From IMG/VR virus record IMGVR_UViG_3300028048_003124: 64,000 nucleotides of DNA; one strand, 5' to 3'. This document shows positions 1-55,620 of this stretch, in pieces (positions within the stretch are counted from its first letter, which is position 1; the number at the start of each line of letters is the position of its first letter). The notes below the pieces were generated by a model that worked only from the letters and a program-made list of their open reading frames with translations, was not told the origin of the DNA and searched no databases. The DNA comes from a virus (taxonomy: Duplodnaviria; Caudoviricetes). Both the position numbers and the translations under genes were made by a program.

Positions 1-13
1 ATAAAAGAAGTCC

Positions 14-42
14 TTGCAAAAAGAAGAGAATTGTGTTACAAT
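14..42 (+). promoter_or_regulatory. sigma-A type promoter (TTGCAA-17-TACAAT, extended -10 TG)
   Basis: ttgcaa 14-19, 17-nt spacer, tacaat 37-42; AAGGAGG RBS follows. Confidence 0.7.
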
Positions 43-71
43 TAACCTACAAAAGCAAGGAGGTTGTTACA

Positions 72-728: not shown

Positions 729-755
729 TAATACCAATATTTTCTCTTTATAGGG

Positions 756-1598
756 GTGATTTTGGTGGTATATTTCCTCAACGAGGGTAGGTTCATACCT
801 AAGGATGATAAGGATGTTGTTATTTACGCTGTGTTGCTTAATGCCCAGAGACTTGATGCTGAAAGGGTAGTGGGCAAGACATTCATGACTACAAACAAGT
901 TTTTAGCTTATAACTCAACACAGGGTGTAAAAGGCTCTGTAAGTAGGAAATGTAGCACCTTGTATGCAGCTAAGAAGATGTGTGATAAGCCAATACTTTT
1001 CTATAAGACAGCCAAAGGCAATAATACCATAAAATCTGATAGCTTGCCTTTTTCTTATACAGATCATTACAGTTATGCCTATATTGATGGCTCTTTTAAC
1101 GACAGGTCAGAGGTATATGGTTGGGGAGGTTTTTTAGATAAGAACGGCATACGTCACATATTAAAGGGTAGTAGAAAAGATGACTATTCTAGATATGGTA
1201 GCGTAGCAGGAGAACTTTTTGGTGTCATCGATACTTTGAAGAAAGCCAGAGAGATTGGAGTAAGTGGTCTTATAATTTACTATGACTTTGATTGTATATA
1301 TCGGTACTTGCTTGGAAGTCATGGTAGTAAAAATGATATCGCTATGTTGTATAAAGATACGGTAAAAGAAGCAATAAGTGATGGTTTGGATTTGATACTC
1401 GTCAAATTATCAAGCCATTCGGGTATTGCTGGAAATGATATAGCTGATCGCTTAGCGAGAGAAGCCGTTGGTCTAAGATCAGTAGGATGTTTACCATCAG
1501 GTTTCTTTAAGCCTAAGTGTAGATACCGTTGTTTTCCTGTAGAGTTTGCAGGAAAACGTATAACTGCTGATACTTTTATAAGTAGTGAGGTAGATTAA
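756..1598 (+). CDS. ribonuclease HI-domain protein
   Basis: Catalytic motifs YIDGSFN, AGELFG, YYD, SHSGIAGNDIADRLA. Confidence 0.85.
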   Translation: MILVVYFLNEGRFIPKDDKDVVIYAVLLNAQRLDAERVVGKTFMTTNKFLAYNSTQGVKGSVSRKCSTLYAAKKMCDKPILFYKTAKGNNTIKSDSLPFSYTDHYSYAYIDGSFNDRSEVYGWGGFLDKNGIRHILKGSRKDDYSRYGSVAGELFGVIDTLKKAREIGVSGLIIYYDFDCIYRYLLGSHGSKNDIAMLYKDTVKEAISDGLDLILVKLSSHSGIAGNDIADRLAREAVGLRSVGCLPSGFFKPKCRYRCFPVEFAGKRITADTFISSEVD

Positions 1599-1599
1599 A

Positions 1600-1788
1600 A
1601 TGCTTGTCATAAAGTTAAGAGAAGCACATGGCTACCCAGAAACGTATGTATATGATTGTTTTGGCAATTTATTGTACTGTGTAGATGGTAGTTGTAATGT
1701 TATATCAGGTGATCCTAAATACGATGAGTATGAGTGGGTTGACTATAGTTACAATTCTACTATGGATACCTTGATTGTAATAGTTTAA
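1600..1788 (+). CDS. small hypothetical protein
   Basis: ORF coupled to upstream gene, GAGG RBS. Confidence 0.5.
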   Translation: MLVIKLREAHGYPETYVYDCFGNLLYCVDGSCNVISGDPKYDEYEWVDYSYNSTMDTLIVIV

Positions 1789-1808
1789 GTACAGTTTGGA
1801 GGTGTAGT

Positions 1809-2027
1809 ATGTTTAAGGTAAGTTTCTTTGTAAAAGAGATGGTTGTTAATGGTGTTAAGAAGTACACTGACCAGGTAGTAAAGGCTTATTCTATCGAAGA
1901 GGCTATTAAAGCCCTGATAGAAGATGCGTACAACTATAGAAGAGTTTATGGTGGTGTGGCTGATTTATCCAACTGGGTAATTTTCAGAGGCAACACAGGC
2001 AACAGGATTTATACATTTGATACATAA
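1809..2027 (+). CDS. small hypothetical protein
   Basis: ORF with GGAGGT RBS. Confidence 0.65.
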   Translation: MFKVSFFVKEMVVNGVKKYTDQVVKAYSIEEAIKALIEDAYNYRRVYGGVADLSNWVIFRGNTGNRIYTFDT

Positions 2028-2107
2028 GTTTCTACCAACCATTTAATGGTTGTTAGATATAAGTCCGCACTTTGTTGTTTTCATGTGGACTAAAATTCCT
2101 TTCTTTT

Positions 2108-2150
2108 AGGGCAGTCGCTGTAGTTTCGAGCTATGGCGACTGTTCTTTTT
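2108..2150 (+). terminator. intrinsic terminator
   Basis: gggcagtcgctgtag / ctatggcgactgttc hairpin plus T-run. Confidence 0.8.
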
Positions 2151-2494
2151 AATTGGTGAAAACTGGTGGTATGTGGATACGGTATAAGTTTAGTAAAGAT
2201 TAGTGTTTATTTAGGTGTTGTAGATTGATCGGAATTTTCGTAGAATACAAAAACTGGCAAGAGATGTGTGGTCGTTAGTTATGCTAATACCATAAGAGTT
2301 TATGATAGAAATTTCCTAAAAATTAGGAGTAATTTTCGGTTGAGTCGTTGGTGGGGCAGTGCTTTCTAAGATGGTCGATTTTCAACATTATAAAAGAAGT
2401 GTATTTTAAGATTACAGTAGTGAGTTTTAAAGAGGTTGAGTAGAAGAGGGTATTCAAAACGTACTCTTAGATTGTTATATTTTGATATTTAAAT

Positions 2495-2695
2495 TTAGAT
2501 ACTAGAAGAATTTTATTAGAATTTATAAGGATAAAACCCTTTATTGATATACAATTTTAGATTCTATAAGTTTATTTTAGTCTGAGTATGTGTATTTGTT
2601 GAATATGTTTGTACTTTTTTAGTTCTATGAAGTATAAAATTAGAAAAAAGAAAGAATTTATTAGAGTTTAGAAATATTTTATTAGAAACTATAAT
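2495..2695 (+). repeat. 21-bp-phased TTAGA-N3-TAGAAG array 1
   Basis: Units start at 2495, 2516, 2557, 2619, 2640, 2661, 2682. Confidence 0.75.
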
Positions 2696-2820
2696 GAGAA
2701 TTGTTTGATACACTGATGGTATATTTATGTGTAAGTTGTATCGGGTGCATTGCTTTAAGTAAAATAATTATTTTTAGTGGTTTTCCAAGAAATATTTTTA
2801 TGAGAGGAGAAGTTTGTAGT

Positions 2821-4074
2821 ATGAGTTATTTGTACGACAGTTTAAGAGATGCTCTTGGTGGTAAGAACTTTACTAGTGGCAAATACATATCAAATTGGTC
2901 GCCAAACGAAGTAAGGGGTATTGTCTTGATGAGAGATTTTATTCTTATTGCGGACTATATCAAATCGCCAAAAATTGTTAAGTTAGATTACAATGATGTA
3001 GCTTTCGACCTACAGAACAGAAATAGACGTGGAAATCTAAACAATTTATTAAGCAGTAGGCAGCTTTCCTGTTTGGAGGAGATTTACGTTGACGAAGGTA
3101 TGAGATCGTATAGAGATGTCATAGATTTAGCAGCATACGTAAATAGCCTTGTAAGTAGCAGCAGTAGGCTAAGGTACTATGGGTATGTAAGTGGCTTCAG
3201 AGCAGATATGATTAGAGACTTATATCAAAAGGCTTTAATGAATGGCTCTATGGACTTCACACTAGCAGAGACTTTGGGTAATTTCCAATTCGCTACAACA
3301 AATAATACAGAGTGGTACAGCAAGTATAATCTAAGACCCCAATTTTACGGGGTAGACGTAGACGGTGGTAGATTAAGCACATACTTTAAAAAGTGTGAGA
3401 GTGTTATTGGGGCAATAGAGAGGGAAAAGAGTGGCAAGATTGAAGAGCTAAACGAGTTGATAAGGATTAAAGAAGCTTTCCTGTTTGATTACAACAGTGT
3501 TGAGAGCCTCAGGTACCTGTTCTTATTTGGTAAGTTTTTGGGAAATACTGATATGGTTGGCAGACGTATAGGCAAGAATTTACTTGAAAGTCTGAGAAAG
3601 TGTACCAGTGTTGATGGTTTAACTTATCCTAAACTTGCAGATGCTCTTAGAAAAGGTAATGTACCAAGTGACGGAAGGGTACAGTACCTCTTTAATCAGT
3701 ATAAAGAGTTAGGTCTGTATGATAAGGCAGATAGCAAAAAAGAATTCAAGTTGGAGGAGACAGACAAATTAGGAAACAAACACGAGGTAAAGGGTATATA
3801 CAGGCTTGGTGAAAGGCTTGATACGTTGTTAGCAGGTATGTTTAGGGCTAACAGTAACTGGAAATTGTTTTATCTAATGTCTTGTAAGCGTTGTAACAGC
3901 TTACCTGCGGGAAAATTATCATATGAGTTAGAGAAAGATGGAGTTCTTTTCTGTGGTGTTAACGGTAGTGTGTCGAATGGAGATGGTGTACAAGAGTTAG
4001 TAAAATTCTTGTACGATTTGTCTGGATATTCAGAAGAAGGTTTCAAACGGGTATGTACCAGAGAAAGAAAGTGA
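2821..4074 (+). CDS. hypothetical protein
   Basis: Long ORF; ATG 2821 preceded by GAGGAG. Confidence 0.75.
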   Translation: MSYLYDSLRDALGGKNFTSGKYISNWSPNEVRGIVLMRDFILIADYIKSPKIVKLDYNDVAFDLQNRNRRGNLNNLLSSRQLSCLEEIYVDEGMRSYRDVIDLAAYVNSLVSSSSRLRYYGYVSGFRADMIRDLYQKALMNGSMDFTLAETLGNFQFATTNNTEWYSKYNLRPQFYGVDVDGGRLSTYFKKCESVIGAIEREKSGKIEELNELIRIKEAFLFDYNSVESLRYLFLFGKFLGNTDMVGRRIGKNLLESLRKCTSVDGLTYPKLADALRKGNVPSDGRVQYLFNQYKELGLYDKADSKKEFKLEETDKLGNKHEVKGIYRLGERLDTLLAGMFRANSNWKLFYLMSCKRCNSLPAGKLSYELEKDGVLFCGVNGSVSNGDGVQELVKFLYDLSGYSEEGFKRVCTRERK

Positions 4075-4087
4075 GGTTATTTTAAGA

Positions 4088-7000
4088 ATGGATACTAATT
4101 TAAAGGCTAACATAAGTTCAGAGTATGGTAAGCTGAGTAATTGGGAGAAATCAAGGGTAGTAAAATACCTCAGATTGCTTGGTAAGAACAACTTTGATGT
4201 AATAACTTACTGTCAGATTGATGGCGTAGATTTGAATGGTCTAGAACACGCTTTTCAGGGAGAGGGTTCAGATGGCGAGTTAGGGTATCTACACTTACTG
4301 GTAGATGCTATAACACTATCTAAAGAGAAGAACAAAGGTCTGCCTGTCAGTATGTGCCTAAGTGATGATATTGAGGTAGCTGAGGTGCTTGGGCATAAAG
4401 GCTCAGAGTGTGTAGGTATCGATGGTGCGATAGGTGCGTGGAATATAGAGGTAGGAAAGGGTACTAAGGAAAAGTATGACGGCGCTGATGATAGTTGGGA
4501 AGATCAGAAGAAAGAGGATGAAGAGCGCAAGAAGAGGGAAGAAGAGGATAGAAAGAGAAGAGAGGCTGAGGATAAGGCTAAGGATGAGGAGCGGAAAAAG
4601 GAAGAGGAAAAATCCAAGCACCGTGATGAGTATGACAATCTAAGAGAAGAGATACGCAAGATTTTCAATCTTTCAATAACTCAGAACGTAGAGGGTATTC
4701 TGGAAAGGTATAGACTTCTGTTAGAGTCTGGCTATGACCTAGAAAGACCTTATGGTATTGTAAGCTCATTGGGTGTTATTTACTTAGATAGTGATAACGT
4801 GTTGAAGGTTAGAGAAGATTATGAACATGATATTGATATCAACTCATCTTTAAACATGTATAACTATTTTGAGGGTAAGTTAAATTTCGAAGAGTCTGAT
4901 TCTCGTTCTGCAAAGATGATAGGTGCAGATATACTCGAGGGTTACAGAATGCATAAGACTATTTACTTCCCTAATAAGCTGTTAGAGTATGCTTATGGTA
5001 GAGCAAGTAGTAGAGAGGAAAGTAAAAATTACTCTTACGCAAAGAGAAATGGTGAAGGCATAAGTACCAAATGGGGTAAGATGCGTGACATGATAAGGGA
5101 GGATTTGAAGATTGTTATTGAAAATTCTCTTGTTGTCTATTGTGTAAACATTCTCGGTTGTGATAAGAGTGGCAAAGATGCCAGAGAGAAGATAGTCAAG
5201 AGTGGCAAGAACTCTGAAGTTGAGGGTTTTATCAAGTATATCTCTAACAGTATGAGTAACTGTGTTATCATTATGGAATATAAGAGTACTCAGAGCAAAC
5301 CCTTAAAAATGAGGATTAGGGTATGTGATCCGAGTGGTAGTTGTTATCAAAACATGATTGGCGAGATTATAAATGTTGCTTTTTCTGGAAACACTGGTGG
5401 TTCTGAGGGTGTAACTTTATCAAGCAGTCTTAATGAGGTTGATAGTAACACATATAAGGTTTATGAATATGCCCATGAGTTTAATCATGTGCTTAGTAAT
5501 GCTATGCCTTTGTTTGCATATAAAGCATATGAAAAGTTAGCTGAGAAAGGCGAGAGTATTTCTTTCAAAGATCTAGTTCTTGGGCAGAGCATAGATGGAA
5601 CAATATTAAGAAATGGTACTCATGGTGTGAATTTGAGTGGCAATTTATTCCATTACATCAATGCAGGAAGCCGATCGGGTAAAGGTGTTATGACACTAAA
5701 CATGGTAGCAGGGGCATTACTAAGTGGTAAGGCTCTGTTTTACTTAGACAATAAACCAGATATGGCATCTATGTTAAGTGAGATAGGAGGAGGCAACACA
5801 GCAAGTGGACCCTCTTTCTTTGCATTGAATGGTAGTAACTACAATGATGACAAACAGGCTCAGTTTACAATGCAAGATTCTTGGATAAACCCAGAGCACA
5901 TACCAGTAGAGGTAGTCGAGCTTTTTGGAGAACCGAGTTGGAGTAAGCTTGGAGATTTGTTTTACATGAGAGCATATACTCTTGCTTTTGGTATAATTCT
6001 TGCAAGGGGTTTAGATGGAGGTCACGGCAAGGGTGATGATGAACGATTTGGAGGAAAACAGGGTATTTTCCTTATTTGTGATGAAACAAATATACTCCAA
6101 GATAAATTCAGATTACTTATGGAAGTGGTAGCTGATAAGATACCTTTACAGAGTAAGAATTTTAAGTCTATGTCGGCAGCTTTAATTGCCAAGTATAACG
6201 AGATGAATACAGAAGGTGCAAGAAAGGGTATTGAGGCAAAGTACGATACCATGAAACGTGATTTCGAGGAAGCCTTTAATGCGCACAAGTTTTATGCTTT
6301 AAGCTTGCTCAATATGTTTGCTGATAATATAAGTTATCTTGGTGATAAAAGTAATGCAGGTTTCTTGAGAGCTGAGTTTGAAAAGTCAGACGTAGCGGTA
6401 ATTGGTCAGAACCTAGAGCAAAGACCTATAAGCAAAGAGACAATAAGAACTTCTGTTAGTAGTGCAAGATTAACAGGAGAGGCAAGTGGTGCAAAGGGAT
6501 TAGGAGGAACGCAAGTAGCTAAAGACGTAAAGGGTAGTGCAAGCATACCTTTAGCGCATTTTGTGTTTAGTAGTTCTGATGCATTAATAGGTTATAACAG
6601 TATACATCCAGAATATCTTGCTCAAACCGAGGCTGGAAGTAATGCTTTCGGCAGACTAGATTTGAGTGCAAATAATTTCTGTTATCTTCCGAGGTTAAAT
6701 CTTGTAGAGGATGAGAAACCTGCTGTACAGTTAACAAAATCAAAGGCAAATGAGCAGAGTAGTGTTTACTTTAAACCGTATCTTATACTTAATAATTCTA
6801 GTGATGCTTATACAAGCCAGATGTTTGAAAGGGTAGCAAACGCTGGACTTCTTCCAGAAGATGTTATAAGGGAGTACCCAGATGAAAACAACAGTGGAAA
6901 AATAAGTCCTTTTGTTGGATTCCCTGAATACATGAGTCTTATGGGAGTTACTGATATTGCTGATAGACTGAAGAAGAGTGCTGACATAGCTAATTTTGTA

Positions 7001-8479
7001 GTAGGTCAGGTATTGGGGTACCCAGATGATGGAAGTGGACGTCCTTTATGGTTACAATTAGTAACAGATTTACGTCCAGAGTGGATATTTTCCTTGAAGG
7101 ATGTTGCTTGTCTTAGTGGTGGTTTAATTAGAGATGCAAATTTACCTAAAGAAAAGAACAATCCTTTAGTTAAAGAGTATTATGATTATATTAAGTTCGT
7201 CACAGAAAATACAGATTTAGGCATTACAGACAACTCCATGAGTAGAGAAGGGGTTATGTATGTAGATGATAATGGTGATGTTAACTGGGATTTAACGGGT
7301 TATGAGAGAGATGGTGGAACGGGTGATTTCGACGCTGATGACGAATATGATGAGAATGGTTATGTAAGTAGAATGCAGAGAGGTCTTGGCGATGATGAGG
7401 TATATGAAGATGACGAGGAAATAGACGATTTCTTCGGTGATGAAGATACTGACTATCATGACGGTTTTGAGACTGCTGATGTATTCGATGCCAGTAGCAA
7501 TGTTGTAGGAAGCAGAGAAGGTTATGCCTATGAGATGGCTGAAAAAGATAGGCAGATAGCTGAATTACTCCAGAAGCTCAAGGAAGCAGGGTATAGTGAT
7601 AAAGACCTAGAAGGGTATGGGGTATTTAGTAGCGGAAGCTCAGGTCAAGGTGTTGATTGCGGATACAGAGTACCAGAAGATAGATATGAGTTTGGCAGGA
7701 CTGATTTCGATGGTATGGGTGAAGGCTTTGCCAGTACTGATGATGAAATCAGAGCTACAACGATGGCTCATTTAATACAGAAGATAACTGACAGAGTATT
7801 GGTAGACTTTGGAGGACCTGAGCGTTTCAAGAGTATTCGAGTTATTGGCGGTGCATTGATCGTAAATGGTCTAGCCTATCGTTGCAAAGTAAGCAAGGAT
7901 TGCATAGGTCTTTTACCTCTTGACATAAGGCGTAAGGTTCACGCAGGAAACATCGCCGATCTGTTCAATTGGAGTGCTTTATATCGTATGCCAAATCTGA
8001 AGGGTTTGGAGTTTGATTCTATCAACTTTGTGAGCACTGAGGTTGCCAGTATGCTTGGCTTTGGAAGTAATATTTCTGTAGAGAGTTTCTTTGATGCTTT
8101 TCCAAGTTTGTTAGGTCTCATCCTTGGCAAGAATAGATTTACAAGACAGAATTATAAGCAGGAGATGCAGGATTGTGATCTATTCTACTATCAAAGCAGG
8201 GGTACTGCTTACGCAGGTGCCTGTGACAGTGTATTAAGTAAGTGGACAAAAAATTCTTGGACATTCACAAAGAATATGCTTACGGATAGGAACAAAGGGG
8301 TATTCACAAGGGTTTTAGGTGTAATGTTTGGTGGCGCAGCGTCTGCTGTAACTGGTGTAGCAGCCTTAGGAGCAAAAGGAGCTAAAGGTATAGGGCAGAT
8401 GGTAGATAAGAAGAAAAACAAAGGAAGAATAGGCAAGGGTATCGATGTTGTTAAAGAGACTTTTAAGGATCTCTTTTAA
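4088..8479 (+). CDS. large P-loop ATPase (FtsK/HerA/VirD4-like core) with charged coiled-coil and acidic regions
   Basis: Walker A-like AGSRSGKG, FYLDNKPD, Walker B-like FLICDE. Confidence 0.6.
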   Translation: MDTNLKANISSEYGKLSNWEKSRVVKYLRLLGKNNFDVITYCQIDGVDLNGLEHAFQGEGSDGELGYLHLLVDAITLSKEKNKGLPVSMCLSDDIEVAEVLGHKGSECVGIDGAIGAWNIEVGKGTKEKYDGADDSWEDQKKEDEERKKREEEDRKRREAEDKAKDEERKKEEEKSKHRDEYDNLREEIRKIFNLSITQNVEGILERYRLLLESGYDLERPYGIVSSLGVIYLDSDNVLKVREDYEHDIDINSSLNMYNYFEGKLNFEESDSRSAKMIGADILEGYRMHKTIYFPNKLLEYAYGRASSREESKNYSYAKRNGEGISTKWGKMRDMIREDLKIVIENSLVVYCVNILGCDKSGKDAREKIVKSGKNSEVEGFIKYISNSMSNCVIIMEYKSTQSKPLKMRIRVCDPSGSCYQNMIGEIINVAFSGNTGGSEGVTLSSSLNEVDSNTYKVYEYAHEFNHVLSNAMPLFAYKAYEKLAEKGESISFKDLVLGQSIDGTILRNGTHGVNLSGNLFHYINAGSRSGKGVMTLNMVAGALLSGKALFYLDNKPDMASMLSEIGGGNTASGPSFFALNGSNYNDDKQAQFTMQDSWINPEHIPVEVVELFGEPSWSKLGDLFYMRAYTLAFGIILARGLDGGHGKGDDERFGGKQGIFLICDETNILQDKFRLLMEVVADKIPLQSKNFKSMSAALIAKYNEMNTEGARKGIEAKYDTMKRDFEEAFNAHKFYALSLLNMFADNISYLGDKSNAGFLRAEFEKSDVAVIGQNLEQRPISKETIRTSVSSARLTGEASGAKGLGGTQVAKDVKGSASIPLAHFVFSSSDALIGYNSIHPEYLAQTEAGSNAFGRLDLSANNFCYLPRLNLVEDEKPAVQLTKSKANEQSSVYFKPYLILNNSSDAYTSQMFERVANAGLLPEDVIREYPDENNSGKISPFVGFPEYMSLMGVTDIADRLKKSADIANFVVGQVLGYPDDGSGRPLWLQLVTDLRPEWIFSLKDVACLSGGLIRDANLPKEKNNPLVKEYYDYIKFVTENTDLGITDNSMSREGVMYVDDNGDVNWDLTGYERDGGTGDFDADDEYDENGYVSRMQRGLGDDEVYEDDEEIDDFFGDEDTDYHDGFETADVFDASSNVVGSREGYAYEMAEKDRQIAELLQKLKEAGYSDKDLEGYGVFSSGSSGQGVDCGYRVPEDRYEFGRTDFDGMGEGFASTDDEIRATTMAHLIQKITDRVLVDFGGPERFKSIRVIGGALIVNGLAYRCKVSKDCIGLLPLDIRRKVHAGNIADLFNWSALYRMPNLKGLEFDSINFVSTEVASMLGFGSNISVESFFDAFPSLLGLILGKNRFTRQNYKQEMQDCDLFYYQSRGTAYAGACDSVLSKWTKNSWTFTKNMLTDRNKGVFTRVLGVMFGGAASAVTGVAALGAKGAKGIGQMVDKKKNKGRIGKGIDVVKETFKDLF

Positions 8480-8496
8480 AAGTCTATTGTAGCTTA

Positions 8497-8531
8497 TTAA
8501 GACGGTATTTCGGTTAGAGGTACCGTCTTAA
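8497..8531 (+). terminator. terminator-like hairpin
   Basis: ttaagacggtattt / gaggtaccgtcttaa inverted repeat after the stop codon. Confidence 0.7.
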
Positions 8532-8599
8532 ATTTTACTCAACTTGTATGTTCTTTTTACGGACGTGTTGTCCTTAAAGGAAAGAAGGTGTTTAGCTAA

Positions 8600-8893
8600 A
8601 TGGCTGTTATTCATAACCCCTATAGAGTGCTTGGTTTAAAAGAAGGATGTAGCGAGAAAGATGTAAAAAAGGCTTTTAGGCTTCTATGCAAGGAGTATCA
8701 CCCTGATATAACTGGTGCCAAGTGGGGTGACGAGTCATACAAAAAATTCCTTGAAATAAGAGATGCTTACGAGATGATTATATCAGGCAAAACATCTGTA
8801 GTATCTAACGCTAGTAATGGAAGAAGCAGTACCGACGATGATTGGTATTGGTCTCATAAAAGTTTATTCCAAATTTTTAAAAGGAGAAAGTAA
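8600..8893 (+). CDS. small J-domain (DnaJ-like) protein
   Basis: NPYRVLGL...VKKAFR...YHPD...F.EI..AYE. Confidence 0.9.
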   Translation: MAVIHNPYRVLGLKEGCSEKDVKKAFRLLCKEYHPDITGAKWGDESYKKFLEIRDAYEMIISGKTSVVSNASNGRSSTDDDWYWSHKSLFQIFKRRK

Positions 8894-8895
8894 CC

Positions 8896-9300
8896 ATGGT
8901 AAAACTTATCAAAAATGGTATCGTTAAGATGCCTTGGAGAGCAGACAGATTCTTCGAGAGTAGAACAAGAGGTTTCATCGCCGCTGTTGAGGTATATGGT
9001 ACGGAAGAAGCTCCGATCCCTGTTATCTTTCAGGAGGGAGTTGTTTTCTTGCTTGTAGATCCTGATACAGGAGATGTCGCATCTCTCGAAGAGATTGCAG
9101 AGGCGATCAAAGAGTGCTTCAACGATGGTATCTCTTGTGAGGATGGTTATCCCGATGCTTATGTTGAGCTAGGAAACATGGGTATCGATGATGAAGATGA
9201 AGCCAAAAACTGGGGTTTGACCGATGAGAACATCTCAGACATTGCTGAGAGATGTGTTGATCTTCATCCTTATTGGGAGGTTGAAGATGTTGAAATGTAG
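8896..9300 (+). CDS. acidic hypothetical protein
   Basis: ORF with AGGAG RBS; D/E-rich C-terminal half. Confidence 0.75.
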   Translation: MVKLIKNGIVKMPWRADRFFESRTRGFIAAVEVYGTEEAPIPVIFQEGVVFLLVDPDTGDVASLEEIAEAIKECFNDGISCEDGYPDAYVELGNMGIDDEDEAKNWGLTDENISDIAERCVDLHPYWEVEDVEM

Positions 9301-9342
9301 TTCTTATAAGGTTTTATGCTTTATTACCCAGATAATGTTTAT

Positions 9343-9462
9343 TTAGATCCAAGAAGTATTTTTATTAGATACTAGAAGTGTTTAAATAGACTATTTATGG
9401 TATAATTTAGAAAAAGTATATACATTATTAGATCTTAGAAGTGCATAGTTAGAATTTAAAAG
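9343..9462 (+). repeat. 21-bp-phased TTAGA-N3-TAGAAG array 2
   Basis: Units at 9343, 9365, 9386 (weak), 9407, 9428, 9449. Confidence 0.75.
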
Positions 9463-9500
9463 ATTTGCAACAGGCTATAGAGCTTGTTGCAAATCTTTTT
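9458..9500 (+). terminator. terminator hairpin overlapping the next -35 box
   Basis: aaaagatttgcaacaggc / gcttgttgcaaatctttt. Confidence 0.7.
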
Positions 9501-9515
9501 AATTTATGTTAAAAT
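9487..9515 (+). promoter_or_regulatory. sigma-A type promoter
   Basis: TTGCAA-17-TAAAAT with TG extension. Confidence 0.6.
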
Positions 9516-9813
9516 AAGTATATGTCGAGAGACCTGAAAGATTTGCGGTAGTTCATTTCTTTTACTATCTCGGCATTATAAACATCAACTTAGTTATATA
9601 ACTAGTGCACAAGTTGATTTGAGAAGCGCATGGCTCTTAGGTGTGTTTCGGTGAGTAAGCGTTGGAGTGTATAAGGATCTAAGAGAACTTTCAAGTAAGC
9701 CCATAAGGTATATGGCAAAGAAAGATTTGTATACAGGTTTTGTGAATAAGTTACGCTCCAACGACGACTCATTAAAAAAATTGCTAGAAATTTCAAAAAA
9801 ATTTCAGAGTTTA

Positions 9814-9842
9814 TTGCATATTCTACGGATATGTGTTAAACT
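9814..9842 (+). promoter_or_regulatory. sigma-A type promoter driving the large ncRNA/tRNA-Leu unit
   Basis: TTGCAT-17-TAAACT with TG extension. Confidence 0.65.
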
Positions 9843-9849
9843 ATACATA

Positions 9850-10765
9850 GTTCGAAAGGCAAAAAACTTCTATACGGCTTGTTCGTATGAGGGAGGTTGA
9901 GTACTTTCGGACTTTGGTGGGCAGCGCCAGCCAGTCCCTTTAAGGACAGGAAGGGGTGCGTTGCCCCAAGGAGAGTAAGTCTGCGATTAGATGGTTAGAG
10001 AAGCCGTCTAATTAGGGTTAAAACGCAGATGTATGTGCGTAACGCCGCCTGAAAGAAGAAAGCCCTGTGCCGTTGGATCTTGGCTCTGGGTGTAAGAGTT
10101 CGGACGCCGTTGAGATGCCATACCCCTCGAGGATTTTGTCGGCGGTCGGTCTATGAGACAGCCTAGTACGCTACTAGGCAGTAAGGTTCCGATCAGGGGT
10201 TAGATGCCGAGTATAGCGCAAAATACGTCGCCGGAAGATAATGTCTGGCGGCGAGTGGCGCTCCCCTACGATGAGTGTGAAGAGCGTAGAGATGGTTGGG
10301 GAGCCAACGCCACCAGTTCTCGCAGAACTGGTATCCCTTGACGAGATTACTGTCGCAAACCCTGAAAACGGCAGGTAGGCGAGTCAGTGTATGTCCGATG
10401 AGCGGTTTATCCCGATGAGCGGTAGCAAGACTCGCCTATGGGACTTCCGAGGTTGCTGTGAGCCTGTGCATAGGATAGGCGTTTTCCGACTTTAATCGCC
10501 CCATGCAATCACACAGTCGTTATATAAGGATGAGCCGAGGAATAGCAGGTTGCATGATTGCGTGGAGTCTATAGATAGACGTGTGAAGCGTATGAAGTGA
10601 TGGACTTTGTCCGACTTGTTCCTTATATGATGTAACTGATCCTAAGGTCGGCAGGGGAGTTTCCTCTTTAAGTTAGTGCTTAAAGATGGCTAAAGAGTTG
10701 GTAACAACTAGAAGCGAGGATGCGTAAGAAACTCCAGTCAGGTAGTGGGTAAGCCTGACATCCCT
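9850..10765 (+). ncRNA. candidate large structured ncRNA (~0.9 kb, GOLLD-sized)
   Basis: GC-rich island with no ORF in the track beyond 9900, many nested helices, promoter upstream and tRNA immediately downstream. Confidence 0.65.
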
Positions 10766-10778
10766 TCCCTTTAAGTAT

Positions 10779-10862
10779 GCGGATATGGCGGAATAGGCAG
10801 ACGCGCCAGATTTAGGATCTGGTATCTCAGATGTGCAGGTTCAAGTCCTGTTATCCGCACCA
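10779..10862 (+). tRNA. tRNA-Leu(UAG)
   Basis: Cloverleaf; anticodon arm ccaga-tttagga-tctgg, variable arm, GGTTCAAGTCC, encoded CCA. Confidence 0.95.
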
Positions 10863-10897
10863 TGGGTAATAACCATGAAAATGGTTTAAATAATGGT

Positions 10898-11241
10898 ACT
10901 CCTTTTGGTAAGGGCACTTTGCTTTTATCTTAACTAAGAATACAGGAGGGTAAATATCATGTCAGATAAAAACTACTATGAGGTCATGATTGACCATTCA
11001 ACCTTTTCAACAGCAAAATGGGCAGTTGTCAGCTACCCGAAGGATAAGTGTATCAAGAACGGTGAGCACATCAGTGACCATGAACTCGCTCAAAAACTGC
11101 TCGCGATCATTTCAAGAAAAACAGGTTTGTCAAATCTCGTCATCCATTCGATCACACTTCTCGGCGACGATGTCATCATAATTGATGACGAGCCCGTTGA
11201 TTAAAACTCCTTTCGGCAAGGGCACTTAGCTTCTGCCTTAA
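10898..11241 (+). repeat. 36-bp imperfect direct repeats flanking a single small gene
   Basis: 10898-10933 versus 11206-11241, 30/36 identical. Confidence 0.8.
10959..11204 (+). CDS. small hypothetical protein (cassette-like)
   Basis: ORF with AGGAGG RBS; more C-ending codons than neighbours. Confidence 0.75.
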   Translation: MSDKNYYEVMIDHSTFSTAKWAVVSYPKDKCIKNGEHISDHELAQKLLAIISRKTGLSNLVIHSITLLGDDVIIIDDEPVD

Positions 11242-11526
11242 TTATATTCTTTGTTGTTTGGTAAAGATAGCTACAATTAAATATAATTTTAGTTGTAGCT
11301 ATCAGATCCACTATATGTACAGCAAGAAGATTAATACATCAACGTGTATTTTGTGTATAGCCTCAAGATGCCAGCGTTAGTTTAAAGATGAGCTAACGCT
11401 GGCGGAAGGTATAATTAGCTCCCCTAAGGGTGTTGTGAGTAAGAGTATCTTCCCAGCTCTAAGTCATCAACTTAATGTAAAAGACTAAATCGCCCTAACT
11501 CATAACTTGTCGTTTCCCTGACGGAT

Positions 11527-11571
11527 AGCGGTCATCATTGCAGAGATGTGATGATGACCGCTATTACTTTT
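11527..11571 (+). terminator. intrinsic terminator
   Basis: agcggtcatcatt / gatgatgaccgct hairpin followed by T-rich tail. Confidence 0.7.
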
Positions 11572-11613
11572 ATACGAAGAAGCATAGGGTATGTTTTAGG
11601 TGATTGTGCTATA

Positions 11614-11716
11614 TTAGAATAGTTATATGTTTTATTAGAATCTAGAAGTATAGATATTAGTTTTTAGAGGTAGATTTATTAGAACTTAGAAAAGATTTTT
11701 TATTAGAGATAGGTGT
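11614..11716 (+). repeat. TTAGA-N3-TAGAAG array 3
   Basis: Units at 11614, 11635, 11657, 11679, 11703. Confidence 0.7.
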
Positions 11717-12225
11717 GGATTTAACCAGTTTTGTAACCAGGGTAGTGTTAGGAAGATTAGGTTAAGAGCTAATAATTAGTGTTTTATCGATTGTTCCTAT
11801 GTGCTATAAATATATAGTTAAAACTGAGATTGTTGTAGCATCTTATCTCGTACTTTCTTAGAGTGTGCATCTTTCTTGGGATTGTTAGAGTTTCCTCAGG
11901 ATTGTGTAACTAGTTGTAAGTGTTGTTAGATTACTTTGATTGTTTATTTTTTCTGAAGATTTGGTTATTATTTTTGGTTATAAAAATACTTATTTATTTT
12001 TAACTATATTTTCAGACAAAGATTTTCGGCTTAACCACTGGCTTTTTGAGAATTTTGTGTGGGTGGTAGGGCTATTGTGCGTTTTGTTTTGTTATTTTTC
12101 TAACTAAGATTTATACTTTTTTGTTGAGAGTTATAGAGAGTGTATAGATTGTTTTTGATTGTAATTCTTTTTTGTAGGATTTATAATTGTAGATATTTTT
12201 TCTGCCTAATTTTTGTATGAGTGTA

Positions 12226-12254
12226 TTGCTTTATTTTCCGAATTATGGTAAAAT
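12226..12254 (+). promoter_or_regulatory. sigma-A type promoter
   Basis: TTGCTT-17-TAAAAT with TG extension; two array units (12294, 12315) lie just downstream. Confidence 0.6.
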
Positions 12255-12348
12255 AATATTTGTAAGATATATTTGGTAAGCTTTTATACTTTATTAGAAT
12301 AGTGATATATTTCATTAGATTTTAGAAGCTTGATTAGAGGTACAGATT

Positions 12349-12951
12349 ATGAAGAACTTTTTCTCTGTTATGATTAAGTGCAAAGATGAGATTTATGAAC
12401 GGCGTGACAGGAATGCAGCTGATGTGTTTGTTAAGGTGCGTGATTTTGTTGAGTCTGGTAGGTATTCTAGTTGTAAGCGAGCTTCTGACATCGCTAAGCT
12501 GACTTTGCGTGGTTTAAAGGATTCTGATATTGCCATTAAGTTTGACAGGTCTGTAGAAACTGTGAGGTCTGAGAAAAGGAAGATTAGTGTAGAGTTGTGG
12601 TCGATCTTTCCTGCTGATTTCTTTGATAATCTGTTGGACTACAGGAATAAATCTTCCTATGTTGATAGTTGTATCTTTGCCTTAAACTATTGGGGAAGTG
12701 CTTCCGATGTAGTACTTCTATCAGACGTAGTCAAAGGCGTGTTGCTTAGTGGCAAAATTCAGGGTAATGACTACACTATCGAAGAGTTAAAGGATGAGAT
12801 AGGTGTTTTGAGGCTATATACCAGAGATTATCTGGAAACTAATCTAAGCATGTCAGATATTGACAAGTTACGATACATAATCGCTATATTGGACGGCGTA
12901 AAGGGCGACTTGAGTATCAAATCTGAAATAATAAAAAGGCTTACGGCTTAA
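12349..12951 (+). CDS. putative HTH DNA-binding protein
   Basis: GLKDSDIAIKFDRSVETVRSEKRKI resembles a LuxR/sigma region-4 HTH. Confidence 0.55.
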   Translation: MKNFFSVMIKCKDEIYERRDRNAADVFVKVRDFVESGRYSSCKRASDIAKLTLRGLKDSDIAIKFDRSVETVRSEKRKISVELWSIFPADFFDNLLDYRNKSSYVDSCIFALNYWGSASDVVLLSDVVKGVLLSGKIQGNDYTIEELKDEIGVLRLYTRDYLETNLSMSDIDKLRYIIAILDGVKGDLSIKSEIIKRLTA

Positions 12952-12956
12952 CGATA

Positions 12957-14273
12957 ATGGGGGTACATACTATGTATAATTGTGAGAAGCTTTTTGGTAA
13001 GCGTGTTATCAACGCATATTATGAGTTTAACTTCGCCATGGCACTTGCAGCTGAGTGCGGTAGACGAGGGGACTGTCTAGATATGAGGAGTATGCGTATT
13101 CCCGATAAGGAGATACTTTCCGACTCAGATATTGCTTATATGCGGTATCTTAGAGACCTTGGGTATATGTATGATGGCACCTTAGATGAACCGAGGCTGT
13201 CAAGAGGTTCAGATACAGAGTTACTTCAAAGAAGTAAGGGCGGCTTTTTTAATACAGATCTTATTGAAGATCTTGGTATTAAGGTTGTTGATTGTAAAGA
13301 AGATATGTATTACTGGTGTTCAGAGTATGCTTACAGTTGTTATGGTAAGTACATTCAGGCTGAACTAAACAGGAAAAGGGTAAGTAATACAACTCTACAT
13401 ATTCTTGCGTATCTGTTCTTATCAATAGAGCTCGGTGAAATACCTAAGAAACCTATTCATTTCTTTTATAAGACATTAGAGACTTGCAACATTTATCTGT
13501 ATCAAAGTCTTATGGCTTGTGAGAAAAGTATTCCAACCCTGAAGGGTAATGTTTTCATTGACTTAGATGAAGACTATATCGAGAATGTTGGAGATATGGA
13601 TTTCAATCTTTTGGCAAGCATTGCTTCTCATAGCGGTAAGATGAGGAAGTGGTCTTGTTCTGAGAAGATTGCAGCTTTTGAGAGATATGGGTTAAAGAAG
13701 GGTAGTATCTGTATTCTATACGAAAGAGGCGGAGTTAGTGAGAGTAACTCAGTTGGTGTAATCTCTGGGGCTTGTGTTGTAAGGATTGATGACTATTTCG
13801 ATGGGATAAGCGGAGATGTAACAGAGAGTGGAAAGTATAAAAAGAAGGGTAGAGCAGGATGGGTAGTAACGAAGTTTAGTGTAAATAAGACAAAAGAAGA
13901 AATGCTAGACGATTACTATGGAATTGATGAAGAGTACAAGAGTACTTTCAAAGATTTGCTCAACCCGTCGTTAGGAAGTACGCAGACGTTCATGTCTTTT
14001 GAAAACGTAGGTATTGGAACTTACTTCTTAGATGAAGAGTATCTTTTAATGCCTATAGAAAGAGACTGTAAAAATAAGAAGAAGGTAACTATTGATGGCA
14101 AGAGTGCTGTTATCGACTTAGATGATGTGGAAGCGATATACTGGATTTTAAATCAGTTTGGTGTTGACTTTGATAAAGAGGAATACAAAAGGTTTTACAA
14201 TAATGGTGAAGATCTTACATACGATATGTTTGATTGCAGAACAATTGATACTCATCGTGGTATAGAGGTATGA
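12957..14273 (+). CDS. hypothetical protein
   Basis: 438-aa ORF in operon with the HTH gene. Confidence 0.75.
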   Translation: MGVHTMYNCEKLFGKRVINAYYEFNFAMALAAECGRRGDCLDMRSMRIPDKEILSDSDIAYMRYLRDLGYMYDGTLDEPRLSRGSDTELLQRSKGGFFNTDLIEDLGIKVVDCKEDMYYWCSEYAYSCYGKYIQAELNRKRVSNTTLHILAYLFLSIELGEIPKKPIHFFYKTLETCNIYLYQSLMACEKSIPTLKGNVFIDLDEDYIENVGDMDFNLLASIASHSGKMRKWSCSEKIAAFERYGLKKGSICILYERGGVSESNSVGVISGACVVRIDDYFDGISGDVTESGKYKKKGRAGWVVTKFSVNKTKEEMLDDYYGIDEEYKSTFKDLLNPSLGSTQTFMSFENVGIGTYFLDEEYLLMPIERDCKNKKKVTIDGKSAVIDLDDVEAIYWILNQFGVDFDKEEYKRFYNNGEDLTYDMFDCRTIDTHRGIEV

Positions 14274-14320
14274 CAGGAAGAGTGTACGACTATATCATTT
14301 TGGTATGAGAGGTATCTTTA

Positions 14321-14440
14321 TTAGAAAAAAGAAAAGGTAATTCAGATATATAAGGTGTTTTATTAGTTCCTAGAAGAAATAATATAGTTCCGTGAAGGAA
14401 TAAATTAGAATTACAATAGTGTTTAATTAGATCTTAGAAA
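14321..14440 (+). repeat. 21-bp-phased TTAGA-N3-TAGAAG array 4
   Basis: Units at 14321, 14342, 14363, 14384, 14405, 14427. Confidence 0.8.
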
Positions 14441-14446
14441 AAACAG

Positions 14447-16597
14447 TTGTTTATAGAGAAGGTGTTTGTGTTGTCTACTAATTCAGTTTTTGATGATTTG
14501 ATGGACTTTTCCGCTACAAAAGAGAGTGAAAAGCGTTCAAAAATGAAGCCGAGTGATAGATTGATCGCCGACATAGAAGGGTATGGGTTCAATTTGTCTC
14601 AGCTTGAGGTTGTTTTAAAGACGTCTGGTCATCAGCTAATTGTGTCTTGTGCAGGAAGCGGTAAGACAACTAGTATTATTTTTAAGATAATATATGATCT
14701 TAAGTCTGGCAGAAGTACGGTTATGAGGCAAGTAGGTGATAAACCAATTCGTGTACCTGATACAATCTGGGTAGCAACGTTTTTAAAGTCTGGCGCAGAT
14801 GAGTTAAAGAACTCTTACAGACGTTGGTGCAACCGTCTACATTGTGCAGATATGTCTCAGGTAATCCAGTTTAGTACCCTGCATGCAGAGTTTAAGCGTG
14901 TTATAACTCAACTTGGTATGAATACAGATATTATCTCTGAATCTGAGAATAAGTCTTTACTCAAGAAAATTTTAAACAATTATGGTATAAAGAGCTCCAA
15001 AGGTGTGCAACTTAATGAAGACGAACTTAGTTCGTTGGTAGGTGCGTTAACTAGGACTAGAAACAGGCTTGATAACAAGCGTTACGAGAGTGATATCTAT
15101 GAGGACCTTGGTCTCACTGGTAGTGTTATCGACTGTGTTCTCAGAGATTGGAAGGTTGCTCGTGGCGTAAAAAATATGGTAGATTTTGAAGATCTGCAAG
15201 AGATTTTGTATGATGCTTGCTATGTCCAAAAGAGTGAGGCTATCATTAACTTCCTCGCAGATAGGTATAAGTTTATTTACCTTGATGAGTTTCAAGATAC
15301 ATCACAAATCCAGTATGCGATTTTAAAGATCTATGCTTCTCAGGCTCGTCAGGTGATAGCTATTGGTGATGATGACCAGACCATCTACTCGTGGAGGGGT
15401 AGTGATAATGAGATTATTACTAAAAAATTCCTTTTAGACTTTTCTCCAGTGAAGAATGACCTGTCAGTAAATTTCAGGTGTCCTGAAAAAATCCTTAATT
15501 CCATTAAACCCAGTATAGTGAATAATGTAAACAGATTTAATAAGGTACTGACAAGTGCGAATACAGGAGGTTTAGTGAGATATGGCAGTTACCCAGGGTA
15601 CAGACACATGGCAATGGCTCTTGGTGATTTGGTATATGATGATGTAGCTAAAGGAATGTCAGTAGCTATACTGTGCAGAACTAATAGTGACGGTCTTTTA
15701 CCAGCGCTATTCTTTGACAAGATGGGTAAGTTTTCTTACAGTATATCTGGAAAAAGCATGACGCTTGATTCCTATATAGGTAGACTGGTACTTTCTATAG
15801 TTAAACTGTTTACGGATAGATATTCTAGTGATGTTAAAAGAGCCCTGAACTTGCTAACATTTGATACATACGGTGTCAAAAAGTTGATGAGTGTATGTAA
15901 GTCTAGTGGTGAAAGTATATGGACTATAAATGCTGAAGATTTGAAGTATTCATGTTTTGAGATTGCCGACAGGATTTTATCTTGGAGGGATTTTCGTAAG
16001 AACTCAGGTGATATTACCACGCTAAAGCTTGTTTTACAAGAATACCGCTACAGCGTTTTTGTGAGGGAAAACCAGTTTAACGATATTATGAAATCGGTTC
16101 TTTTGAGTGTTGAGAGTATTCTTGATTACTATGATTATGACTCGGTAGATGATTTCTTGGTTGAGTTGCAGGATATTAACGAGAGGTTAAAGGCTAGGGA
16201 GAAAAAGGCAAACGCTCAGGTAAAAATAGCAACCGTTCATGAGTTCAAGGGTAAGGAGTCCGATTCTGTATACATCTGGAATGACTCAGAGAATGTTTTT
16301 CCTTATAAGAGGAGTACAGATACTCTTGAAGAGTTAGAAGAGGAGAGAAGGATACACTATATTGCAGGCACTCGTGCTAAAAAGGTAAGCACGATTATGT
16401 ACCTAAGAGGTCACAAAGGCTCTTTTGTTGACGAGATGGACTTATCCGAAGCAGAAGAGTTAGTAGGAGAGACGTCTGGGGTACTTAAAAAGGCAATAGA
16501 AAATAACATGGTTGAGAATAAGGGTATGCAAGAGTTTGTAAAAGAGGTAAGTGTTGATACTGGTGAGATTGACGAAGATGGTAACTTGGTAACATAA
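14447..16597 (+). CDS. UvrD/PcrA/Rep superfamily-1 helicase (start uncertain)
   Basis: CAGSGKTT, TLH, LDEFQDT, IGDDDQTIYSWRG, NFRC, TVHEFKGKE, EEERRIHYIAGTRAK. Confidence 0.95.
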   Translation: MFIEKVFVLSTNSVFDDLMDFSATKESEKRSKMKPSDRLIADIEGYGFNLSQLEVVLKTSGHQLIVSCAGSGKTTSIIFKIIYDLKSGRSTVMRQVGDKPIRVPDTIWVATFLKSGADELKNSYRRWCNRLHCADMSQVIQFSTLHAEFKRVITQLGMNTDIISESENKSLLKKILNNYGIKSSKGVQLNEDELSSLVGALTRTRNRLDNKRYESDIYEDLGLTGSVIDCVLRDWKVARGVKNMVDFEDLQEILYDACYVQKSEAIINFLADRYKFIYLDEFQDTSQIQYAILKIYASQARQVIAIGDDDQTIYSWRGSDNEIITKKFLLDFSPVKNDLSVNFRCPEKILNSIKPSIVNNVNRFNKVLTSANTGGLVRYGSYPGYRHMAMALGDLVYDDVAKGMSVAILCRTNSDGLLPALFFDKMGKFSYSISGKSMTLDSYIGRLVLSIVKLFTDRYSSDVKRALNLLTFDTYGVKKLMSVCKSSGESIWTINAEDLKYSCFEIADRILSWRDFRKNSGDITTLKLVLQEYRYSVFVRENQFNDIMKSVLLSVESILDYYDYDSVDDFLVELQDINERLKAREKKANAQVKIATVHEFKGKESDSVYIWNDSENVFPYKRSTDTLEELEEERRIHYIAGTRAKKVSTIMYLRGHKGSFVDEMDLSEAEELVGETSGVLKKAIENNMVENKGMQEFVKEVSVDTGEIDEDGNLVT

Positions 16598-42498: not shown

Positions 42499-42624
42499 AG
42501 GAAAGATGTAATATTCCAGTGTTTATATTTTTGGGCATACTTGTATGGGTAATAGCTTCTATATGTGTGGGCGAAGCCCTACGAGAAAGTAGAGAGAATA
42601 AGTATAAAAGGGAGAGAAAAGGTA

Positions 42625-53004: not shown

Positions 53005-53145
53005 TATAATTGTTAAAATGTATATACATAGAGTATGTTAAATTAGAACTTAGAAGTATTACAGTAGTTTCAAGAATGTACTTTTTGCGTAAGTTTTTCT
53101 ATGAGCTGTACTTTATGTATATCTTATTTTTTAGGAGGTATTTAT

Positions 53146-54312
53146 ATGATTACAGGAACCGCTAAGTTGGTGGTAGACTTAGGTAACTCCGAAACAAGAG
53201 TTATGACTCTGTTCGGAAAAACTGCCAAGGGAAATCCTAAGAAAAGAACTTCTGTGCTTAGCAATAGGTACAGTGTTATTTCGGAGGATAAACTAGAGAC
53301 ATATTTGAGCGGTGGTACTTACACAGATGAGAACTCTGCTGTGTTTAGATTGCCTAATGGAGCTCTTTACTGCAACGGTGATCTTTGCAATCTTGAGATG
53401 GCGCAGACTTCTGTAAGACCCTCGGCTCTTGAAAAGAAGTATGAGACACTGATTTCCAAGCTTTCTTTGATCAATGCTATCAAACAAGGTATTGAGGATG
53501 TCGCAGTGTTTTCTAATTGTGATATGGAGAGTGTCGATGTAAACTGGGAAATGTATCTGCTGTTGCCCCCAGAGGATATCGACGCTGGTGCTAAGCAGAT
53601 CGCTGATATGGCAAAAAGTATCACAGAGATTGACTTCGTTCTGCCTAAGTACAAAACTAATATCAACATCACAAAGGTAAATGTATATCCTGAGGGTATG
53701 TGTGCCTTTTTTGGTGTTATCTTTGAAAGGAAGGGTGTACCCCGTCCCGATTACAGGTACCTCATTGAGACTGGCGAGTCTACGGTTATCTTTGATATCG
53801 GTGCAGGTACAACAGATATTGTTATGGTAAAAGGAAGTCAGGTAATCCAGAGTTCCAGATTTACCAAGGAGATTGGTGGCAATAATGTTCATCGTATTGT
53901 TCAGAGATCTCTTAGAAACAAGGGTATTTCTCTCCCCGAGGAGGTTCTTAGAGAGGGTGTAAATACTGGTTATGTTCGAAGTGGTTCTCGTACTGTAGAT
54001 ATTACAGAGGATATCGCAGAGGCTAAGAGAACGGTTTCCAACCAGCTTGTAGATGCTGTACAGGAGTTTTTCGAGAGCTCTATGATTAGCATTCGCACTA
54101 TTGCTAATATTCTTATTTGTGGTGGAGGCGCTGAAGAGTCAGCAAATGAGAATATTGCTCCGATTGCTAATTATGTAGTAGACTACATGAGACGGTTAAC
54201 TCCCGATTTGAAGAGAATTGAGATGCCCAGTACAGTGACATCGGATGGTGAAGAAGAAAAGCTCTCACCTCGTATGCTAAACATTATTGGAGCGGGAATT
54301 CTTGCCGAATAA
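53146..54312 (+). CDS. ParM/StbA-like actin-fold ATPase
   Basis: VVDLGNSETR (phosphate 1), YPEG, FDIGAGTTD (phosphate 2), ICGGGA (adenosine); AGGAGG RBS. Confidence 0.88.
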   Translation: MITGTAKLVVDLGNSETRVMTLFGKTAKGNPKKRTSVLSNRYSVISEDKLETYLSGGTYTDENSAVFRLPNGALYCNGDLCNLEMAQTSVRPSALEKKYETLISKLSLINAIKQGIEDVAVFSNCDMESVDVNWEMYLLLPPEDIDAGAKQIADMAKSITEIDFVLPKYKTNINITKVNVYPEGMCAFFGVIFERKGVPRPDYRYLIETGESTVIFDIGAGTTDIVMVKGSQVIQSSRFTKEIGGNNVHRIVQRSLRNKGISLPEEVLREGVNTGYVRSGSRTVDITEDIAEAKRTVSNQLVDAVQEFFESSMISIRTIANILICGGGAEESANENIAPIANYVVDYMRRLTPDLKRIEMPSTVTSDGEEEKLSPRMLNIIGAGILAE

Positions 54313-54331
54313 ACTATAAAGAGAGGTAAAT

Positions 54332-55489: not shown

Positions 55490-55499
55490 TTACAGGTAA

Positions 55500-55528
55500 G
55501 AGGGCTTCATTATGTGGAGCCCTCTCTC
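55500..55528 (+). terminator. terminator-like hairpin
   Basis: gagggcttca / tggagccctc. Confidence 0.65.
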
Positions 55529-55620
55529 ATAAAAATAAAGAAGTGTATAATGTTTTATGTTTTGCGTTTATGCATTTCTTTATTTTCATGAGAGATATCA
55601 ATTAGGTGGTGTGATAGTAT

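Follow-up and report, generated by a model that had tools for sequence, protein, structure and literature searches.

Why does one short word recur every two helical turns in front of several genes of an uncultured mobile element? The question is raised by the 64,000 nucleotides of IMG/VR virus record IMGVR_UViG_3300028048_003124 (the window, always meant at its full length of 64 kb), in which an earlier note had reported arrays of TTAGA-N3-TAGAAG phased at 21 bp and had interpreted them as cooperative binding platforms for one element-encoded protein, acting as a multi-site centromere, an iteron set or a core-gene regulon. The DNA belongs to a large mobile element from a gut or rumen bacterium; the sortases, pilins, BspA-type leucine-rich repeat (LRR) proteins and dockerin protein that it encodes indicate a Gram-positive host. 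With about as much confidence as doubt, and from sequence only, we propose that the arrays are cooperative operator tracks for an element-encoded protein, which would control a DNA-metabolism module and, in this genome only, an actin-like segregation operon.

Counted over the whole window and both strands, as are all window counts below, TTAGA-N3-TAGAAG with at most one mismatch has 16 matches; the figure for 100 dinucleotide shuffles is 3.77 ± 2.15 (maximum 11). Every match is on the + strand, in agreement with the + strand recurrence in intergenic DNA first described. Thirteen of the 16 matches lie inside the arrays listed below, plus one at 53043. The core is present at all 27 unit positions named in the earlier note, in degenerate form at six of them (9386, 9407, 14342, 14384, 14405 and 53064), and we add three weak units at 2577, 11703 and 12334. 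A weight matrix built from the units themselves, and hence circular when it scores those units, gives 24 sites of ≥10 bits on the forward strand and none on the reverse, the single such site outside the six arrays being an isolated one at 19167. Distances between TTAGA words on the + strand, which do not depend on the matrix, peak at 21 (n = 9), 22 (n = 3), 42 (n = 4), 63–64, 84–85 and 105–106 bp, and a further 7-bp distance (n = 6) arises within the unit. Chains of at least three TTAG[AT] words at steps of 20–22 or 41–44 bp number four forward and none reverse, against 0.36 in block shuffles, and Tandem Repeats Finder independently reports periods of 21–22 at four array loci. The spacing is thus 21–22 bp or multiples of it, as had been described, and both motif frequency and 21-bp periodicity, the comparison named beforehand, exceed those of shuffled sequence.

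Set out in rows of 21 nt, a unit comprises three heptads, TTAGAww, yTAGAAG and a T-rich wnTTTTA, with 10–12 conserved positions per 21-bp unit and 7-bp linkers that vary between units, as the earlier note had observed. Because many units spell TTAGA-NN-TTAGA-AG, the core can be described as TTAGA repeated directly at a distance of 7 bp, with the pair returning after each two turns of the helix. The uniform orientation of the units is weak evidence, since every gene of the window lies on the + strand and the strand bias points the same way. Clustered regularly interspaced short palindromic repeats (CRISPR) are 24–40 bp long and are separated by unique spacers of similar length. A CRISPR array was therefore rejected, as it had been at the outset, because the unit is only 21 bp in all, with 7-bp linkers and no spacers. 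Host CodY boxes were also rejected (9 against 7.1 expected in the window, with one coincidence at 2509). A search for the double unit elsewhere in IMG/VR gave 105 matches, all of them unrelated (coding Leu-Glu repeats or 7-bp TTAGAAT microsatellites); for example, the unrelated viral contigs L115 (8870–8945), L096 (1745–1810) and L034 (300–540) carry 7-bp TTAGAAT or TTAGAAA microsatellites that match the double-unit pattern.

Phased arrays occupy only six intergenic spots within the 64 kb, as follows:

2495..2702, + strand: array 1, with units at 2495, 2516, 2557, (2577), 2619, 2640, 2661 and 2682
9343..9462, + strand: array 2, with good units at 9343, 9365, 9428 and 9449
11614..11717, + strand: array 3, with units at 11614, 11635, 11657 and 11679 and a weak one at 11703
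12294..12347, + strand: array 4, with units at 12294 and 12315, plus TTAGAGG at 12334
14321..14440, + strand: array 5, with six unit positions from 14321 to 14427
53043..53077, + strand: array 6, with one strong unit at 53043 and one weak unit at 53064

Some 15 other intergenic regions of the window are without an array, and neither the matrix scan nor the phased-chain scan found one in the surface-protein island at 18–46 kb, where none had been noticed before. Rather than being spread across the replicon, the arrays keep to a single ~12-kb module and one promoter besides. The module that they frame encodes an RNase H-like protein, uncharacterised proteins of 457 and 1463 aa, a DnaJ-domain protein, a 200-aa helix-turn-helix (HTH) protein (P0001, see below), a 438-aa protein and a UvrD-like helicase; searches of Pfam, PHROGs and PDB sequences with the proteins adjoining the arrays gave nothing informative.

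Every array is intergenic and abuts or overlaps a promoter-like site, predicted here as a consensus match (extended −10 or −35/−10), with the units mostly lying between the predicted start site and the ribosome-binding site. Arrays 3 and 6 begin in an identical register inside the −10: in array 3 the last TT of the −10 TGCTATATT (11607–11615) is the TT of the first TTAGA, and array 6 overlaps the −10 TGTTAAATT (53036–53044) of the actin-like operon. In arrays 1, 3, 4, 5 and 6 the units begin 5–35 nt past the predicted start and reach the ribosome-binding site. Array 1, upstream of the genes for the 457-aa and 1463-aa proteins, has TGTTATATT (2473–2481) just ahead of it and TGGTATATT (2717–2725) just behind. 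Array 4 is downstream of TGGTAAAAT (12246–12254), a second promoter-like site, TGATATATT, lies at 12303, and TTAGAGG at 12334 serves also as the ribosome-binding site of the HTH gene. Array 5 stands between a promoter-like ATGACA-17-TATCAT (14270–14298) and the UvrD-like helicase gene (start at 14447 or 14468). In array 2 the promoter-like TGGTATAAT (9398–9406) falls within an in-phase gap of two units (9386 and 9407). Terminator-like hairpins were found at 2108–2146, 8497–8531, 9458–9499 and 11524–11565, and the arrays mark the starts of transcription units, with the exception of array 2, directly behind which stands the hairpin at 9458–9499. This hairpin is a strong one (19 pairs and a T run) ~60 nt past TGGTATAAT, so that a transcript from one to the other would measure ~85–90 nt and consist mostly of array units; in the relatives a terminator stands before the counterpart of array 2 and not behind it.

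Conservation was assessed in a 140-kb relative (IMG/VR contig 3300045988_187936, here G001, from which loci L001 and L002 are taken) and in two further metagenome contigs, L010 and L011. The three relatives keep the gene order with proteins 35–65% identical, and their intergenic DNA cannot be aligned to the window beyond short promoter-like pieces. They carry phased forward-strand arrays at the same three or four gene junctions as the window:

G001rc 22108–22240, forward: counterpart of array 1, before the orthologue of the 457-aa gene
L001 2857–2975 and L010 2971–3090, forward: counterparts of array 2, after the orthologue of the 134-aa gene
L001 3714–3760, forward: weaker counterpart of array 4, before the P0001 orthologue
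L001 5626–5745 and 5848–6000, L010 5637–5760 and 5897–5975, and L011 5645–5720, forward: counterparts of array 5, before the helicase gene

The word of the relatives is TTAGA-ww-TAAGAAA, in which the first heptad is kept and the second has changed from yTAGAAG to TAAGAAA. When G001 is scanned with the matrix built from the window (≥12 bits), nine of 15 forward matches fall within the 10.2-kb module of its 140 kb (binomial estimate ~2e-7), as do all three of its phased chains. This persistence at the same junctions and concentration in one module provide, at the level of sequence, strong evidence that the array word and its phase are under selection. No unit was found at the promoter of the actin-like operon of G001. 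In that genome an extra ORF (open reading frame) of 159 aa lies between a DHH gene and the actin-like gene (G001rc 42282–42755; L002 ~3500–3975), following a TTGATT/TGGTAAAAT promoter that is without any TTAGA unit.

How might such arrays act? Each 21-bp unit would offer two adjacent TTAGA-type heptads followed by a T-rich heptad, so that successive units would be exposed on one helical face. We propose that a sequence-specific protein of the element occupies neighbouring units next to one another; it would coat the DNA from the core promoter to the ribosome-binding site, thereby setting the transcription of the five units of the module (the genes for the 457-aa and 1463-aa proteins, an RNA unit, those for the HTH and 438-aa proteins, and the UvrD-like helicase operon) and, in this genome, of the actin-like segregation operon as well. 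Repression by occlusion or roadblock seems the most likely sign of control, since units reach into the −10 or the beginning of the predicted transcript. The earlier idea, in which one protein binds the platforms cooperatively and on a single DNA face, fits the phase, the variable linkers and the persistence in relatives; of the three roles then offered, a regulon of promoter-linked operators is the best supported, since every array abuts a promoter-like site.

Which protein would read the arrays? The two proteins nominated earlier, encoded at 12349 and 57622, both look like DNA binders, and we list them together with the gene that opens the operon of the second:

12349..12951, + strand: P0001, 200 aa, with an N-terminal HTH of LuxR/GerE or sigma-region-4 type (~residues 40–90) and a helical C-terminal domain without known fold family
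53147..54312, + strand: gene for an actin-like (ParM/Alp-type) protein, the first of the operon closed by P0002
57622..58353, + strand: P0002, 243 aa, with an N-terminus resembling a ribbon-helix-helix (RHH) fold, a coiled coil, a variable disordered linker and a conserved C-terminal peptide

P0001, the best candidate, is put forward as the reader somewhat tentatively, on account of its position within the module and the logic of autoregulation. Its gene lies directly behind array 4, and P0001, if it is the reader, would control its own synthesis. Its AlphaFold model is confident (predicted local distance difference test, pLDDT, 87) and shows a four-helix HTH of the GerE/sigma-4 type: residues 16–97 match sigma region 4 and the DNA-binding domains of EsrB, DosR, NarL and LuxR/FixJ with Z from 7.2 to 5 (VIA-align), and sigma region 4 and LuxR/FixJ domains fill nearly the whole list of structure matches. 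P0001 itself falls below Pfam thresholds. A profile search of 1.84 billion representatives yielded 251 relatives of ~200 aa (clusters at 50% identity, E up to 1e-3); among 40 members sampled, eight match Pfam GerE (best E 4e-6) and four match Sigma70_r4_2, and the RcsB DNA-binding domain is matched by the family profile (E 0.06). In the recognition helix, residues S68, E70, T71, R73, E75, K76 and R77 are invariant among close orthologues, as is TTAGA. Members of this unnamed family sit on contigs of 134–305 kb, and the family may therefore be a marker for one clade of elements of very large size.

For P0002, the second candidate reader, the evidence consists of leads. The protein begins strand-helix-helix and has an overall layout like that of ParR, its nearest named Atlas clusters are Plasmid_stab_B, RHH_6, ParG and CopG (score 0.79, which is below the reliable range and a lead only), its model is of low confidence (pLDDT 56), and it has no Pfam match. 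It is favoured by the unit itself, since two heptads at a distance of 7 bp fit RHH dimers, of which the protein omega is an example (PMC9499535). The region 53147–58353 is a possible four-gene segregation operon, encoding the actin-like protein, a 385-aa protein, a 657-aa coiled-coil protein and P0002, whose conserved C-terminal peptide ends in a motif like MLDGNMFSF.

Two regulators, BvgA and the P2 C repressor, provide precedents for this kind of control, and others bear comparison with it. BvgA, of the same HTH class as P0001, binds as dimers every 22 bp on one DNA face, and at Bordetella promoters BvgA~P recognizes inverted heptads upstream of the −35 and activates transcription (PMC7250471). 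As is proposed here for P0001, a LuxR/NarL-class HTH protein binds there up to six times, at 22-bp intervals and through many weak sites, and the strong BvgA half-site TAAGAAA is similar to heptad two of the unit in the relatives; in contrast to BvgA, the repeats here are direct and mostly downstream of the −10, and P0001 lacks a receiver domain. The C repressor of phage P2 recognizes direct repeats that are spaced by two turns and extend across a −10 (PMC2995052). Our arrays resemble these non-palindromic repeats in spacing and in their extent over a −10, and cooperative binding is proposed for them too, but P2 has two half-sites at one promoter where here there are 2–8 units at six promoters, and the P2 repressor is of another HTH class. 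The stoperators of the mycobacteriophage L5 repressor gp71 are single 13-bp sites over the whole genome; these are also asymmetric, dispersed and intergenic, in one orientation to transcription and some of them downstream of promoters, and differ from the phased arrays in one module described here. Sites of LytTR regulators, finally, consist of two 9-bp direct repeats 21 bp apart that are read by a LytTR domain. The period of the arrays is likewise 21 bp; scans of G001 and of a set of window ORFs detected no LytTR domain, and a reader of this type, if there is one, may be encoded by the host.

Several observations weigh against control by cooperative operators or against P0001 as its agent. 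A generic promoter scan finds 58 promoter-like sites against 47 in shuffles, which is no excess, and array 1 together with half of array 2 is placed upstream of such a site, because of which the sign of control may differ between sites. In the relatives the gap in array 2 keeps no fixed register to its −10. The shared orientation of units and transcription can also be explained by an RNA motif or by the strong G-over-C strand bias. The HTH fold matches of P0001 are modest, and a Z of ~7 may, by the tool's own warning, reflect a common arrangement. Lastly, TTAGA heptads 7 bp apart suit RHH dimers better than dimers of a LuxR-type HTH (PMC9499535).

Two parts of the module have a bearing on the alternatives considered below. 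The DNA between arrays 2 and 3 is peculiar to this lineage:

9463..11606, + strand: lineage-specific insertion of ~2.1 kb, with a non-coding structured RNA region, a tRNA-Leu (10779–10862), an 81-aa ORF and the terminator at 11524–11565

It splits arrays 2 and 3 exactly, the relatives having a single array at that place, and the arrays may perhaps be joints for the gain of cassettes. Between arrays in all four genomes there is, in addition, an ORF-free T-rich stretch of 550–650 nt (window 11718–12245, L001 3000–3650, L010 3100–3680), with a short conserved piece that reads GGTTATAAAAATAC in the window and L001 and GGTTATATTAATAC in L010; this stretch may represent an origin element or the gene of an RNA. 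That the ~550 nt separating arrays 3 and 4 encode a small conserved protein was rejected because stops fill all frames in the window and its relatives, and the RNA fold z-score there is only −2.1.

The arrays might instead be dispersed centromere-like sites of an actin-type (type II) partition system, in which P0002 would coat them and its C-terminal peptide would link them to actin-like filaments; promoter control would then be a side effect, as with omega of plasmid pSM19035, so that this explanation, which we consider unlikely, overlaps with that of operators. In the type II (actin, ParM) partition loci of R1 and pSK41, parC consists of phased repeats at the promoter (20 bp in pSK41) and ParR, encoded downstream, is an RHH adaptor whose C-terminal peptide binds the motor. 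Here one strong and one weak unit overlap the predicted promoter directly upstream of an actin-like gene, and P0002, with its strand-helix-helix start, disordered linker and conserved C-terminal peptide, closes the same operon. However, two other genes stand between the actin-like and RHH genes, five of the six arrays are far from the actin-like gene, and the array beside it has only one strong unit. This array is absent from G001, which has both the actin-like gene and a P0002 orthologue, and the centromere role is weakened by that absence; in the window 38 kb separate the par-like operon from the conserved arrays, which belong to another module, and the RHH assignment comes from a low-confidence model and sub-threshold leads. 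A functional parallel is omega, the RHH ParB of the Inc18 plasmid pSM19035, which binds several promoter-overlapping arrays of 7–10 contiguous WATCACW heptads in mixed orientation and requires two adjacent heptads for high affinity (PMC9499535). Shared with omega are several dispersed direct-repeat arrays of 7-bp modules overlapping promoters of replication-control or partition genes, two adjacent TTAGA heptads in each unit and, as proposed here, one small protein as global regulator. In contrast, the heptad here is TTAGAww, occupies two of every three positions at a 21-bp period and keeps one orientation, and the motor would be an actin-like protein rather than the ParA ATPase of pSM19035. 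Homology to omega was not detected, and membership in the Inc18 omega-type operators was rejected because of the different word and the non-contiguous heptads, which leaves omega as a functional analogue only. It is also conceivable, and rather improbable in our judgement, that a single small protein reads the arrays both as replication-gene operators and as dispersed centromeres for actin-like filaments in a phage-plasmid-like element of 140–300 kb; if this is true, a master switch in the style of omega would be joined to a type II (actin) motor, and the P0001 and P0002 families would be the marks of a clade of giant elements.

Clusters of direct repeats in one orientation at 21–22 bp are typical of iterons, and plasmid iterons with Rep initiators (P1 incC/incA, F, R6K) form several clusters of ~22-bp direct repeats. 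The arrays could accordingly be initiator sites at one or more origins, with extra arrays for copy control and for autoregulation of replication genes as in P1, F and R6K, which we likewise consider unlikely. They do show direct repeats within 17–22 bp, at about two helical turns, in one orientation and in clusters of two to eight; some overlap promoters, they surround genes for the RNase H-like protein, the UvrD-like helicase and large uncharacterised proteins, and the ORF-free T-rich stretch (~550 nt between arrays 3 and 4, with a 650-nt counterpart in relatives) is placed among them. Yet Pfam, PHROGs and PDB sequence searches of the neighbouring proteins found no Rep-type initiator, which several uncharacterised ones among them could hide; DnaA boxes number 22 against 22.2 expected in the window, with none clustered at the arrays, and no evident unwinding element was found. 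GC skew is uniform at ~+0.3 over the 64 kb and over the 140 kb of G001, without a switch point near the arrays or elsewhere. Unlike iterons, the units conserve 10–12 of 21 positions and one array serves a segregation operon, and six separate promoter-tied arrays suit a regulon better than an origin. Another possibility, which we hold to be quite improbable, is an RNA motif: the arrays would be transcribed as 5′ leaders whose UUAGA/UAGAAG words bind a translational repressor or stability factor. The position of arrays 1, 3, 4, 5 and 6 between predicted start and ribosome-binding site and the sense orientation of all units are consistent with this, but a strict period of two helical turns kept through degenerate units has no obvious meaning for RNA, array 2 straddles a promoter-like site, and with all genes on one strand orientation says little. 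A search at Rfam gathering thresholds, moreover, found no family at the arrays, the ROOL RNA and seven tRNAs of the window lying elsewhere. Very improbable, finally, are repeats that no protein reads, whether AT-rich tandem repeats born of slippage or recombination joints for cassette exchange. The 2.1-kb insertion between arrays 2 and 3 would suit such joints, as would array 6, which goes with a promoter region unlike that of the relative, but the core word and phase are kept where linkers have diverged, and the word survives at orthologous junctions amid unalignable DNA.

Megablast of window positions 1–16000 returned nothing but a tRNA-Leu match from phages and no match from plasmids. A phage nature of the element was not confirmed, as neither the Terminase_6N nor the HK97 capsid family was found in G001, the relative of 140 kb.

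Operator tracks of the kind proposed here would be a familiar control device, that of phased operator arrays. By sequence the arrays belong to none of the known systems compared above, and so far undescribed are their word, the two-heptads-plus-spacer pattern and both families of candidate proteins. The core genes of these very large elements of uncultured Firmicutes are nearly all uncharacterised, and a conserved cis-element at five or six promoters allows a co-regulated module, for early functions or replication, to be mapped for the first time and points to two concrete candidate regulators. If one protein does join the control of replication genes to actin-driven segregation, the omega paradigm would be extended to type II partition.

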